A DNA stretch of 64,000 nucleotides from a virus: positions 1 through 64,000 of IMG/VR virus record IMGVR_UViG_3300022927_000008, one strand, 5' to 3'. The translations under genes and the position numbers were made by a program. Below, one piece after another: positions 41,046-51,062 of this stretch. The notes below the pieces were generated by a model. The model was not told the DNA's origin and ran no database searches. It saw only the letters and a list, made by a program, of their open reading frames with translations. Numbering within the stretch: position 1 is the first letter of the stretch; the number at the start of each line of letters is the position of its first letter.

Positions 41046-43556
41046 TTAAATATAAGCTTCTAAATAGAATTCACTCATGCCTGAGTGGTTTTCACAATAA
41101 GCATACAACTTAGGCTTATGTTCCACCTCAAATCCATTCAAGTTAGATACTATAACATCTGTATATGAACCTGAAGTACCTGGGGTACCTACAGTTGTAA
41201 CGTCTGTGGTGTACTCAACTCCACCTCCATGAGTACCATCTAGTGTTTCTGAAAGTTTTAAGGGATGACCAGTATTACTTGGGTCACTTTGATCAAATCT
41301 ATATGTTAGAGTAGGAGTATATAGAGGATCATATAAGTCATAAGGTTGAATTTCACTTATAGGTGTCCAATAAGAAGAAGACATAATATACTGGCTTCCA
41401 CTTACTAATACTTTTATGGGTAGTTGGGTTAACCGGTTTGAGGCAATAGAACCTGTATCTAATATATCGTGGTTTCCCATAATCCATCCTTTATCTAGCA
41501 AAGTTTCATATGCTTGGTGATTTATACTTCCACTAATGAGAGTTATACCCGTACCACGGACATTATTACCGAACCAAGCTTGGAAATCTTTATAATTTAT
41601 AGCCTCTGTATCTTGGGGAAAGTGTTGAGTACCTTGAGAAAGGATTGCTGGGTACGATGAAGGGATCCCATCAGGTGCTCCCAATCCTTCTGAAATTTCC
41701 GCTGAAGTTCTCTTAGTGTAAGTACGTGTATATAACTTACCAATATTGGTGGGGTAATAAGAGCTATGAGTATCTACATCAACCGCAGAACTACTAGCCC
41801 ATGCCCTAAGTGTAGCCCAATAATTAGTATGAGATATAGAAGAATCACCACACCACCTTTCCCAATTTGTTCCTGAACCCGGAACCCAATTAGTTAAAGC
41901 TTGGTTAAATGAAGTGCCCACAAATACGTAATAACCTGTTGAACCACTTATGTTCCAATTATTAAAGTTTGTGTTGTGTTGAAAAGCCCCATTATAATAA
42001 AACATCATAGATATGTTTTGGGCATTACCCATATTCCAATTGCTTAAATCCGCGTTATGATTAGTGTTAAACCAACGGGCACCGCCATTGACCAGGAACA
42101 TACCGCTAAAATTGGTACCACTACTAACATCCCACCCTCCTATTTCAGGTTGGGAGGTATCAGGTTCAGTGCTTTGCGCTCGAAACATACTATCAAAATT
42201 GGTTACATTTGAAGTATCCCAATTAGACAAATTATTTTCCTTAATGCCTTTACCTAATGTAAATCTAGAGTTATAGAACATTCGATACATACTTGTTATG
42301 TTGCTAGTATCCCAAGCAGCTATATTAAGGGGAGTTATATCAACTCCTAACGTATACCAAAACAACGAGCTGAATGAAGTGCGGTTTGATATATCAAGAT
42401 AATTTATTCTTCTCAACCCACCATAAGCTGGGTTATATGAATTAGGGTTACTTGCAGGATTAGGATCTCCATACACTTTAATATTAGTATTAGTATTGGT
42501 CCAATCCCACCAGTTATTCCAAGGACTCCCCCAAGGGAAATTACCATTACTTGAGGTAATTGCGGGTTCCATAGCGAACCTTGAATATCTATTATCTGAA
42601 GAATAAGACCTAGGTGTATATACAGGGTCAGGGATATGGGGGATCCACTCTTCGGGCACCAAGTGCTCTAAATCGTACCAATGATCCAGAGGGGTTTGAT
42701 TGTAAACGTTACTAGAGGCCGCTTCAGCAGTCCATACACTGGAGGTATCTGATACTTGTTCAATTTGCCAAGGTCCCAACTCCCTTGTATATGTACCTGC
42801 AGGATAGTCATTTACATTCCCATCCCCCCAATCAATCCTTATAGGATTTTCTAAAGTACTAGGCATTCCTGCATAGTATTTTCTTACAGAATCCACTGAG
42901 TTGTTCCTAAAGCTATCCATGTAAGAGGGGACACCATCATACATATACTCTGTGTAGTATTTACCTGGCCCACCACTAGCATCTTTATACATGGTAGTGA
43001 GTAAATCAAGAGATCCCGAACTCCAGTTGGGCATACCATTAGATCCCCATAAATCTATAGTTGGGAACCTACTAGAGCTATAAGAAGGAACAGCAGTCAT
43101 GGTACTCTCATTCCAACCAGGATTCCACATATAATCGTGGTTAGTGCCTACCTCCGCATAAGGATACTTCCATTCATAAATACTTTGTGAGGGGTATATT
43201 TCCATATACAATGTAGGATCCCTCATATCTATAAGCTTGGTGAGGACGGAAGAGGCTCCTAGATCATATACCCCATCAAAAAATAGAGGTAAGGGTCCTC
43301 CACCTCTTGCTCCACTAGGGCCTATACTCTTTTTAGGACCTCCACCTCCACCTCCACCTGCTGCAGCAGCAGCAGATGCTACACTAGGAGATACAGTATT
43401 TATAGTATTTAGGGTTTGTAGATTGCTATAATAGTTTTCAAATAGGAGTTGCTCCTCCATATATTTTTTTCTGGCTTCCATGATGGGAAGTCCTTTTATA
43501 TCTTTTCTTTTTAAGAACTGAGGCCAGGGCTCAGGTTGGTATATTGGTTTCCACAT
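41046..43556 (-). CDS. fibre-like protein A: anchor + PKD-like + DUF285 repeats + C-terminal cupredoxin-like domain
   Basis: IDWGDG; WDTSNVTNFDSMF repeats; GHP..YCENHSGM. Confidence 0.75.
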   Translation of the reverse strand: MWKPIYQPEPWPQFLKRKDIKGLPIMEARKKYMEEQLLFENYYSNLQTLNTINTVSPSVASAAAAAGGGGGGGPKKSIGPSGARGGGPLPLFFDGVYDLGASSVLTKLIDMRDPTLYMEIYPSQSIYEWKYPYAEVGTNHDYMWNPGWNESTMTAVPSYSSSRFPTIDLWGSNGMPNWSSGSLDLLTTMYKDASGGPGKYYTEYMYDGVPSYMDSFRNNSVDSVRKYYAGMPSTLENPIRIDWGDGNVNDYPAGTYTRELGPWQIEQVSDTSSVWTAEAASSNVYNQTPLDHWYDLEHLVPEEWIPHIPDPVYTPRSYSSDNRYSRFAMEPAITSSNGNFPWGSPWNNWWDWTNTNTNIKVYGDPNPASNPNSYNPAYGGLRRINYLDISNRTSFSSLFWYTLGVDITPLNIAAWDTSNITSMYRMFYNSRFTLGKGIKENNLSNWDTSNVTNFDSMFRAQSTEPDTSQPEIGGWDVSSGTNFSGMFLVNGGARWFNTNHNADLSNWNMGNAQNISMMFYYNGAFQHNTNFNNWNISGSTGYYVFVGTSFNQALTNWVPGSGTNWERWCGDSSISHTNYWATLRAWASSSAVDVDTHSSYYPTNIGKLYTRTYTKRTSAEISEGLGAPDGIPSSYPAILSQGTQHFPQDTEAINYKDFQAWFGNNVRGTGITLISGSINHQAYETLLDKGWIMGNHDILDTGSIASNRLTQLPIKVLVSGSQYIMSSSYWTPISEIQPYDLYDPLYTPTLTYRFDQSDPSNTGHPLKLSETLDGTHGGGVEYTTDVTTVGTPGTSGSYTDVIVSNLNGFEVEHKPKLYAYCENHSGMSEFYLEAYI

Positions 43557-50078: not shown

Positions 50079-50148
50079 AGGTTAGGGGTGGAATTGCACC
50101 ACCGTAATAGGATTTGCGATCCTATACCTTCTAATCGGACACCTAACC
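50079..50148 (-). tRNA. tRNA-Cys(GCA), non-canonical
   Basis: acceptor GGTTAGG/CCTAACC + U73; anticodon loop TCGCAAA; T-loop TGCAATT. Confidence 0.8.
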
Positions 50149-50149
50149 A

Positions 50150-50395
50150 TATTGCCCCAGCCAGCGCTGAGGACTTGTCCGTCTGGTATCTCGTCGGACC
50201 ACTGAGATTCTATATTCTGGGTTATAGAAAACCTAGTCTCCCATATTAGACCAAGGGTTATTATGGGGTGATGTCTGTTCCCCTCTCTGACCCCAAGTAT
50301 CAGGCCAACTGGGAATCGAACCCAGAGACATCGACTACTAGAATACTGCCATATCCGTTCGCACTTTTACCCCTCTCCCCCTGGCAGGGGGGAAA
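50150..50395 (-). ncRNA. unidentified ~245-nt structured RNA with a T-arm-like hairpin
   Basis: fills Thr-Cys spacer; GATGTCT/AGACATC stem enclosing CTGGG-TTCGATT-CCCAG; further hairpins. Confidence 0.6.
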
Positions 50396-50396
50396 T

Positions 50397-50471: not shown

Positions 50472-50491
50472 TACATTCGCCTCACACGCTG

Positions 50492-50565
50492 TGATCCCGC
50501 TGGGACTCGAACCCAGGACCCTCTCATTAAAAGTGAGATGCTCTAACCAACTGAGCTACGGGATC
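50492..50565 (-). tRNA. tRNA-Lys(UUU)
   Basis: TCTCA-CTTTTAA-TGAGA. Confidence 0.95.
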
Positions 50566-50568
50566 AAT

Positions 50569-50913
50569 AAATGAAGGAATGGGTAAAGAGTTATTCAGGC
50601 TCTTAAGCGCGACAAGCAGGCGGTTGTATTGGTAAATCATAATGGCACAAGAGGAGTGTTAAACCCGCATCCCATTAATCATTTCACTTCATGGCTGCTA
50701 ACCCCAATTGAAGTTCACAATATCGCTTAGTAGAATTTAGTTCCACTATCACACAACCACACCCTAATAGGCCCACACCGGGCTTTCACCCCCTACAGCG
50801 CTTGCTGTAAGTCGAGCTACCTATTAACATGTGTACTTTATTCCCCTAATCATAGGAACACATTCAGTCATACCCCCCCGTGCGTGATCAGCGCGGTAGG
50901 GTTTCCTTCATTT
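50569..50913 (-). ncRNA. unidentified 345-nt multi-helix structured RNA
   Basis: closed by perfect 11-bp AAATGAAGGAA/TTCCTTCATTT; many internal helices, GAAA tetraloop; fills Ile-Lys spacer. Confidence 0.7.
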
Positions 50914-50914
50914 G

Positions 50915-50988
50915 TAGGAACGGCAGGAATCGAACCTGCGACCTTCAAGATATAAGCTTGATGCTCTAACCAATTGAGCTACGTTCCC
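50915..50988 (-). tRNA. tRNA-Ile(UAU)
   Basis: TCAAG-CTTATAT-CTTGA; A73. Confidence 0.92.
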
Positions 50989-51062
50989 ATATTGGTGCGT
51001 CATTTTATTACGCAGTGACGTCATCAGCGAATGCTATTTATTTCAATAAGTAAAGAACCTAG

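Follow-up and report, generated by a model that had tools for sequence, protein, structure and literature searches.

The transfer RNA (tRNA) clusters of phages T4 and T5 provide the closest described examples of RNAs that lie among tRNA genes without being tRNAs. In T4, rnaC (species 1, 139 nucleotides (nt)) and rnaD (species 2, 119 nt) are stable non-coding RNAs annotated in the phage tRNA cluster, on the tRNA strand and with function unknown, and both are matured from the tRNA precursor transcript. The tRNA genes of T5 are interspersed with eight RNAs (RNAI, RNAIII, RNAIV, RNA1, RNA2, RNA2H, RNA3 and RNAX) that carry the annotation 'stable RNA with unknown functions'. RNAIII adjoins tRNA-His and RNAX, of 719 nt, joins tRNA-Arg directly, so that their ends are set by tRNA processing. 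Cellular tRNA operons also give rise to tRNA-flanked RNAs, which are freed by RNase P together with RNase Z or RNase E and some of which then act in trans. Examples are mitochondrial tRNA punctuation and the E. coli RNAs 3'ETS-leuZ and rtT; the spacer-derived RNAs of bacteria are short (~50-170 nt) and weakly structured. A looser parallel is offered by GOLLD (RF01998) and ROOL (RF03087), large multi-domain RNAs of phages and prophages, backed by covariation and of unknown function, which are found 'often near tRNA islands', and one marine GOLLD, env-38, is located downstream of tRNA-Met (PMC12286853). The present analysis concerns a structured RNA element that fills the spacer between tRNA-Ile and tRNA-Lys at positions 50566..50913 (minus strand) of a 64,000-nt window, the whole stretch of DNA analysed, which is the first 64 kb of the 109,773-nt IMG/VR virus record IMGVR_UViG_3300022927_000008 (CheckV completeness 74%).

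This element is of the same kind as the T4 and T5 RNAs and, more loosely, as GOLLD and ROOL, yet it is unrelated to them by family. It shares with the stable RNAs of phage tRNA clusters that it is non-coding, lies on the tRNA strand and directly abuts tRNAs. T4 rnaC and rnaD likewise abut tRNA-Arg (rnaD at a distance of 1 nt), but they are one third of its size and occupy the cluster's end, not a gap between two tRNAs; no similarity to it in sequence or structure was found, its covariance model (R1) matching the T4 tRNA region only by hairpins of at most 9 bits. The T5 stable RNAs are mostly 73-172 nt long and some are tRNA-like, whereas neither ARAGORN nor Rfam detected a tRNA-like domain in the element, which exceeds the T4 RNAs and most of the T5 RNAs in size and in the complexity of its fold. 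GOLLD and ROOL, of ~580 nt and >800 nt, are widespread, whereas the ~345-nt element belongs to a family confined to one narrow uncultured marine phage clade. We know of no bacterial spacer-derived RNA that resembles it, and a literature search returned no description of it. An IMG/VR catalogue of 10,006 candidate RNAs is limited to motifs of 30-151 nt (PMC10690425). The element is very probably a real, selected and structured RNA of an undescribed family. The full reading, namely that this family consists of non-coding RNAs of ~340-352 nt that are excised from the tRNA operon by host enzymes, are stable and act in trans, is regarded as likely.

The element, its locus and its relatives

The phage record has a G+C content of ~35% and nearly all of its genes on the minus strand, among them those for GroEL, a family-B DNA polymerase, ribonucleotide reductase, a DnaB-type helicase and tail fibres. 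No GenBank phage has a polymerase more than 35% identical to this one, which places the phage in an uncultured lineage. Its tRNA array occupies 49.3-51.2 kb on the minus strand and comprises, in this order, Leu(taa), Arg(tct), Ile(tat), Lys(ttt), Thr(tgt), a tRNA recognised by Rfam only and Leu(tag), none of which encodes CCA. The 348-nt element is flanked upstream by tRNA-Ile(UAU) (50914..50988, minus strand) and downstream by tRNA-Lys(UUU) (50491..50565, minus strand). Both tRNAs are called by ARAGORN and by Rfam, and both are complete (75.8 and 75.6 bits, respectively, in Rfam). Positions within the element are given below as e = 50914 - window coordinate. A first-pass annotation of this DNA had placed the RNA at 50569-50913, which corresponds to the part closed by its terminal helix: the single nucleotide C50914 separates the Ile discriminator A50915 from its first base and, as had also been stated, 3 nt (AUU) separate it from position +1 of tRNA-Lys. 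The stretch is not protein-coding, in line with what had been reported, since its open frames reach at most 60 codons, none is conserved and its variable sites lack a 3-nt periodicity (35/30/34). No promoter-like or terminator-like site was seen within it on the minus strand.

Relatives of the element were collected by exact-word scans, which added three IMG/VR contigs and 43 of 44 metagenome contigs; the remaining one, L140, is a chance match within a coding region and not a copy. R1 was built on 29 full-length copies, all different, and has 349 positions and 93 pairs. With scores of 170-435 bits it recovers 47 copies of the element, namely that of the window and 46 others from marine and coastal viral and metagenome contigs; 38 are distinct, and BLAST identity to the window is 83-98%. 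Seventeen studies contributed runs that contain the stretch, whole or in part, under the labels salt marsh, seawater, marine, coral and freshwater. In the phage relative G005, whose polymerase is 93% identical, the element is conserved at 94-96% identity, and the coding DNA on either side at 72-76%. Across the loci with both flanks, the mean pairwise identity of the element is 0.886, versus 0.809 on the tRNA-Lys side and 0.875 on the tRNA-Ile side, and the neighbouring genes of the same loci are 70-77% identical or unalignable. As many as 245 of 358 alignment columns are invariant, and hairpin P2, the core of P10 and several junction strands (see below for the numbering of helices) never vary.

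The order upstream tRNA, element, tRNA-Lys(UUU) is maintained in every locus. tRNA-Lys is the downstream neighbour in all loci that reach that far, and in these the 3' end of the element lies 0-9 nt from its position +1. At the other side, the upstream neighbour is tRNA-Ile(UAU) in most loci and the 5' end lies 0-7 nt from the upstream tRNA, save in four loci where this distance is 88-96 nt. In three of them (L126, L111 and L127) tRNA-Ile(UAU) is replaced by a tRNA with a CAU anticodon (called Met, possibly Ile2) and 88 extra nt precede the element; the fourth (L138) keeps tRNA-Ile and has 96 extra nt before the element.

Outside this set, searches with the element or its surroundings returned no further members. 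No match of the element to GenBank phages was obtained by blastn, and a megablast of its 6-kb neighbourhood against the same phages matched the tRNAs and nothing else. The neighbouring 312-amino-acid (aa) protein, used as bait, brought up two distant contigs lacking both tRNAs and the element. An exact-pattern scan with GGGGGTGAAAGCCCGGTGTGGGCC found nothing, and two more patterns from the 5' core returned the known members alone. A junction pattern, TATGACTGAATG-N15-40-AAAGTACAC, hit 12 viral contigs and one archaeal metagenome-assembled genome, all of which were rejected as chance matches: they fall inside the gene for a 197-aa protein of an unrelated phage group and are accompanied neither by an R1 match nor by tRNAs. 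When the whole records of 50 relatives by family-B polymerase were searched with BLAST and R1, the element was detected in G005 alone; it was not found in the two records that are 96-100% complete, and most of the others are fragments, in which absence is weak evidence, except for G015, which has the syntenic tRNA array (see below).

Conserved fold and comparison with known RNA families

Folding of the single sequence is not decisive, with z-scores of -1.75 for the minus (sense) strand and -3.45 for the plus strand. The structure was therefore taken from the family, as the RNAalifold consensus plus the P9 hairpin (93 pairs in 11 helices), and scored on the model-based alignment. Standard pairs occupy 98.1% of 3158 cells, compared with 42-51% when the 3' partners are slid by one to three columns. 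Double-sided changes affect 12 pairs and 84 cells, and neither this cell count nor the covariation score was reached in any of 500 shuffles, so the covariation check called for by the first-pass annotation came out in favour of a conserved structure. Parsimony on the element tree indicates repeated independent compensatory events at P1 6/340, P3 57/72, P8 165/302 and P12 312/326 and 313/325. Thirteen or more pairs take the form G.U in the majority of sequences or in all of them and would become A.C on the plus strand; because of these constant pairs the RNA is assigned to the minus strand, in the sense of the tRNAs, as had been proposed. This asymmetry argues for a constraint at the level of RNA rather than DNA.

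In the resulting model, a terminal helix of 8-11 base pairs (bp) shuts a multi-branch junction. Two hairpins on the 5' side of the junction come first, then a three-way domain in which a GNRA hairpin is optional; a second long-range helix, which encloses three more domains, and a 3' hairpin complete the fold. The terminal helix, P1, pairs e4-11 (50903..50910) with e335-342 (50572..50579), all features of the element being on the minus strand. Pairing is kept in 99.6% of its cells, and A6-U340 changes to G-C in ten distinct sequences through at least two independent events. In the window P1 extends to 11 bp (e1-11 with e335-345), as first described; across the family its inner 8 bp are maintained, and sequences with C in place of A3 lack the outer 3 bp. 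P2 (e12-23/e31-42; 50872..50902) is an almost invariant hairpin predicted by RNAalifold, which shows only C/U changes opposite G and no covariation; its 7-nt loop, UGAUCAC, contains the palindrome UGAUCA. In P3 (e54-60/e69-75; 50839..50860), U57-A72 changes to C-G in nine distinct sequences by several independent events.

The three-way P4-P7 domain (e81-156; 50758..50833) includes six pairs with double changes and consists of P4 (81-85/152-156), P5 (87-95/142-150), the P6 hairpin (103-110/115-122) and the optional P7 GNRA hairpin (123-126/131-134). P6 gains one base pair in L105 and L108 by matched insertions. The GGGT-GNRA-GCCC hairpin noticed at the outset is found in 23 of the distinct sequences covering that site, with a GAAA, GAGA, GUAA or GGAA loop, and is cleanly deleted from the other 11. 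Further downstream, P8 joins e160-166 (50748..50754) to e301-307 (50607..50613) as a long-range helix around the 3' half of the RNA, in which it encloses P9, the P10 and P11 domains and unpaired positions 275-300. It is paired in 100% of its cells, and A165-U302 becomes G-C in nine distinct sequences through two independent events with no broken cells. P8 replaces a helix of the first-pass annotation, GTGGTTGTG/TACAACCGC (154-162/286-294), which overlaps it and did not hold up, position 158/290 being U.U in 17 of 32 sequences.

Within P8, the P9 hairpin (e167-173/e179-185, loop CUAAA; 50729..50747) keeps 6-7 bp through paired indels, which shift its register and account for a fixed-column pairing of only 80%. 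The P10 domain (e194-197/232-235, 200-205/223-228 and 208-210/220-222; 50680..50720) undergoes one-sided changes that keep pairing (U-G to U-A, G-U to G-C); its inner stems never vary, an invariance that is biased by the location in P10 of the 20-mer used for the metagenome search. The P11 domain (e237-250/e261-274; 50640..50677) shows U240-A271 changing to C-G and G243/U264 to U/A. A conserved junction segment, e275-300 (UUACCAAUA...CGCCUGCUU; 50614..50639), is predicted to be single-stranded, and its positions 286-294 formed the 3' arm of the unsupported helix. Last, the P12 hairpin (e310-314/e324-328, with the 9-nt loop CCUGAAUAA; 50586..50604) has two adjacent covarying pairs (G-C to A-U and A-U to G-C), with two to four independent events each. 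As regards the remaining helices proposed at first sight, TAATAGGT/GCCTATTA, CTTACAGC/GCTGTAGG, TAATGG/CCATTA and AAGAG/CTCTT are all borne out by compensatory or one-sided consistent changes, and the TAGTGGAA/TTCTACTA hairpin persists despite register-shifting indels. ACTTCA/TGAAGT and GGGTA/TACCC show no variation in the alignment, and the latter competes with the lower stem of P2. A candidate tertiary pair, G188-C258, was set aside: it becomes U-A in one clade only and is not independent evidence.

The family was next compared with known RNAs. A cmscan of the element against Rfam 15 gave no match at gathering thresholds, nor when the 361-nt stretch was scanned by itself under relaxed filters at E<=10, as anticipated for a new class, and this covers GOLLD, ROOL, OLE and raiA. 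The lack of transfer-messenger RNA and RNase P signatures had also been pointed out. For the former (RF00023), ARAGORN reported none, Rfam gave no match and there is no conserved open reading frame (ORF). For the latter, RF00010, RF00011, RF00373 and their relatives gave no match at E<=10 and the topology differs. Short resemblances to RNase P RNA, AAAGUAC and ACAACCGCCUGCUU, fail both the family alignment and Rfam, and the ACA-containing segment resembling the 3' strand of RNase P P4 varies freely (ACAAC, AUAUC, UAUUAUU). There was no Rfam match to group I or group II introns, and the flanking tRNAs are complete.

These results bear on the idea that the element is a ribozyme unrelated to RNase P, whose invariant core would catalyse self-cleavage or ligation at its own ends, or the processing or modification of tRNA. 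A core that never varies, surrounded by peripheral helices that covary, together with long-range helices nested in one another and a GNRA hairpin that may be absent, is typical of large ribozymes, and the size and tRNA context of the element recall RNase P RNA. The models of RNase P (types A, B and archaeal), group I and group II introns and other ribozymes, however, gave no match at E<=10, and the topology is that of a five-way junction closed by P1, lacking a P2/P4-type arrangement and with a variable P4-like 3' segment; a catalytic role of this sort is very unlikely. Even less probable is that the element represents a diverged member of a described class that escapes Rfam, such as a subdomain of GOLLD or ROOL or a Y-RNA-like RNA. 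GOLLD, ROOL and Y RNAs are likewise found near phage tRNAs, but the cmscan found nothing at E<=10, and weak matches to YrlA (RF02553; E 0.14-0.59) fall on the flanking tRNAs and none on the element. Moreover, no TROVE/Ro60 domain was found in the 110-kb, 74% complete record, and R1 matched positions 1-50000 of phage T5 and the T4 tRNA region only by trivial hairpins of at most 9.4 bits. T5 has an ORF-free gap downstream of T5.085 (43142-43504, minus strand), which folds at a z-score of -4.9 and whose closing stem measures ~20 bp; its A+U-rich layout differs from that of the element and it has no R1 match, a comparison made in one direction only. The element, for its part, follows a tRNA and not a protein gene.

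Possible biogenesis and mode of action

tRNA precursors that lack CCA are cut after the discriminator by RNase Z/BN, RNase BN having first been defined on the CCA-less tRNAs of T4, and RNase P cuts at position +1 of the next tRNA. The absence of encoded CCA from the array calls for a 3' cleavage of the RNase Z/BN type, and the first-pass suggestion that the element is sized for release by tRNA processing fits the 3' gaps of 0-9 nt and the 5' gaps of usually 0-7 nt across the family. On these grounds the element is probably excised by the enzymes that process tRNAs. It would be transcribed within a polycistronic phage tRNA operon; a cut of the RNase Z/BN type after the discriminator of the CCA-less upstream tRNA would generate its 5' end and an RNase P cut at +1 of tRNA-Lys(UUU) its 3' end. 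The two cuts would free an RNA of ~347-349 nt, whose terminal helix P1 could then clamp both ends against exonucleases. The released RNA would most likely be stable and act in trans during infection, binding a protein or its own copies; action in trans, taken alone, is only mildly favoured.

As to what such an RNA might do, the large invariant blocks argue for sequence-specific recognition. The only hint in the element of the oligomer formation known from large RNAs is the invariant palindromic loop UGAUCA of P2, which could mediate kissing-loop oligomers by analogy with ROOL, GOLLD and OLE. The constant partnership with tRNA-Lys(UUU) deserves attention because tRNA-Lys is a battleground between phages and host defences: these cleave tRNA-Lys, and phage tRNA-Lys variants neutralise them (PMC11464382). 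The partnership is suggestive of a tie to tRNA-Lys-targeting defence and, in a more speculative vein, the element might for example lure away or inhibit the host nucleases that attack tRNA-Lys (PrrC-type, PARIS AriB).

Several observations weigh against excision followed by action in trans. The upstream gaps of 88-96 nt imply that in those four loci tRNA 3' processing by itself cannot generate the 5' end. The stretch is present in six runs recorded as RNA, and contigs of four RNA libraries were examined; in runs X1 and X4, identical contigs span 8 kb at a depth equal to that of the element (~16-17 and 8-9), which shows neither special accumulation nor ends and may reflect DNA carry-over. No partner protein was identified: searches of the record found no TROVE domain, CCA-adding enzyme or Rnl2-type RNA ligase, and the neighbouring ORFs have no RNA-related Pfam domain. 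The family is also narrow: it was recovered from 5 of 2.9 million IMG/VR contigs and from 43 metagenome contigs, with identity to the window never below 83%, and searching by exact words from the element inflates conservation near those words. Furthermore, the phage G015, whose DNA polymerase is 86% identical, retains the Leu-Arg-Ile-Lys synteny with an unrelated Ile-Lys spacer of 168 nt (folding z-score +0.17), and the RNA is therefore dispensable for this phage group. Finally, the high-identity block of G005 is sharply edged, and recent recombination of the tRNA block could explain part of the conservation and of the apparently independent changes.

Carried to its limit, this last point becomes the proposal that the element is a non-functional spacer or a relic of a decayed mobile element or of tRNAs, whose similarity among phages derives from recent recombinational spread of the tRNA block. 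The sharp edges of the G005 block, whose short spacers are also 90-92% identical, and the narrowness of the family speak for it. It is contradicted by the compensatory double changes at 12 pairs with almost no broken cells, by the helix-preserving indels and by an identity that equals or exceeds that of the flanking tRNAs while the coding flanks have diverged to 70-77%, and it is scarcely credible.

The locus layout raises another alternative, in which the element is a cis-acting leader of tRNA-Lys(UUU), a 5' extension that sets the manner, timing or yield of tRNA-Lys maturation, for instance by exposing or hiding the RNase P site or by shielding the precursor, and is then discarded. The element is indeed bound more tightly to tRNA-Lys (downstream gap of 0-9 nt in all loci versus 0-96 nt upstream), the upstream tRNA varies between Ile(UAU) and a CAU tRNA, and phage tRNA-Lys is a known counter-defence asset (PMC11464382). 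Known tRNA leaders nevertheless need far less than the ~345 nt, the eleven helices and the extensive invariant single-stranded blocks seen here, the closing helix joins the element's own ends without involving the tRNA, and G015 matures the same tRNA-Lys behind its unrelated spacer. Such a leader function is thus considered unlikely.

If the element is indeed an excised, stable RNA, its family adds a compact ~345-nt case whose domains are clearly mapped and for which tRNA punctuation supplies a natural means of production. To our knowledge, few bacterial or phage RNAs longer than 300 nt have complex folds backed by covariation, and earlier classes of this kind (RNase P, tmRNA, OLE, GOLLD, ROOL) proved to be machines or unexpected assemblies. 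The family would offer a tractable entry to a question that dates back to T4 species 1 and 2 and the T5 stable RNAs, namely the role of non-tRNA RNAs in phage tRNA clusters. That it founds a class of large, trans-acting phage RNA machines punched out of tRNA operons, as a new ribozyme or an RNA-only or ribonucleoprotein assembly, is a speculative prospect with a small chance of being right. Its weight is limited by its restriction to one uncultured marine phage clade, by a close relative that does without the RNA and by the lack of a pointer to a specific function.

Other features of the tRNA array and the record

Other spacers of the array are also remarkable. The Arg-Ile spacer (50989-51061, minus strand; 73 nt) shares 92% identity with its counterpart in G005, much more than the coding flanks do, and holds a palindrome, TGACGTCA, and a short hairpin. 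The sharp edges of the high-identity block running from Arg through Ile and the element to Lys suggest that the spacers are constrained or else that the block recombined recently. In G015 the Arg-Ile gap (L101:3352-3600) measures 249 nt and contains a small ORF of ~53 codons (ATGAATCC...TAA). The inter-tRNA spacers of this phage group are hot spots for the swapping of inserts.

A second non-coding stretch occupies 50149-50396 (minus strand), after tRNA-Thr and before the tRNA that comes next. G005 retains the 3' part of this stretch (~50147-50259) at 86% identity and lacks the 5' part; the stretch is probably another conserved inter-tRNA RNA. The adjacent tRNA, 50079-50148 (minus strand), is recognised by Rfam (48.4 bits) without an ARAGORN call and may be an atypical or degenerate member of the array. 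Beyond the window, the family-B DNA polymerase ORF (72651-74336 of the record, minus strand) encodes 561 aa that match the first part of phage polymerase profiles; T4 gp43 has ~900 aa, and the polymerase of this phage may be split between adjacent ORFs. The record also encodes a full-length GroEL-type chaperonin of 541 aa at 67852-69477 (minus strand), which matches phrog_5725 with an E value of 6e-162.

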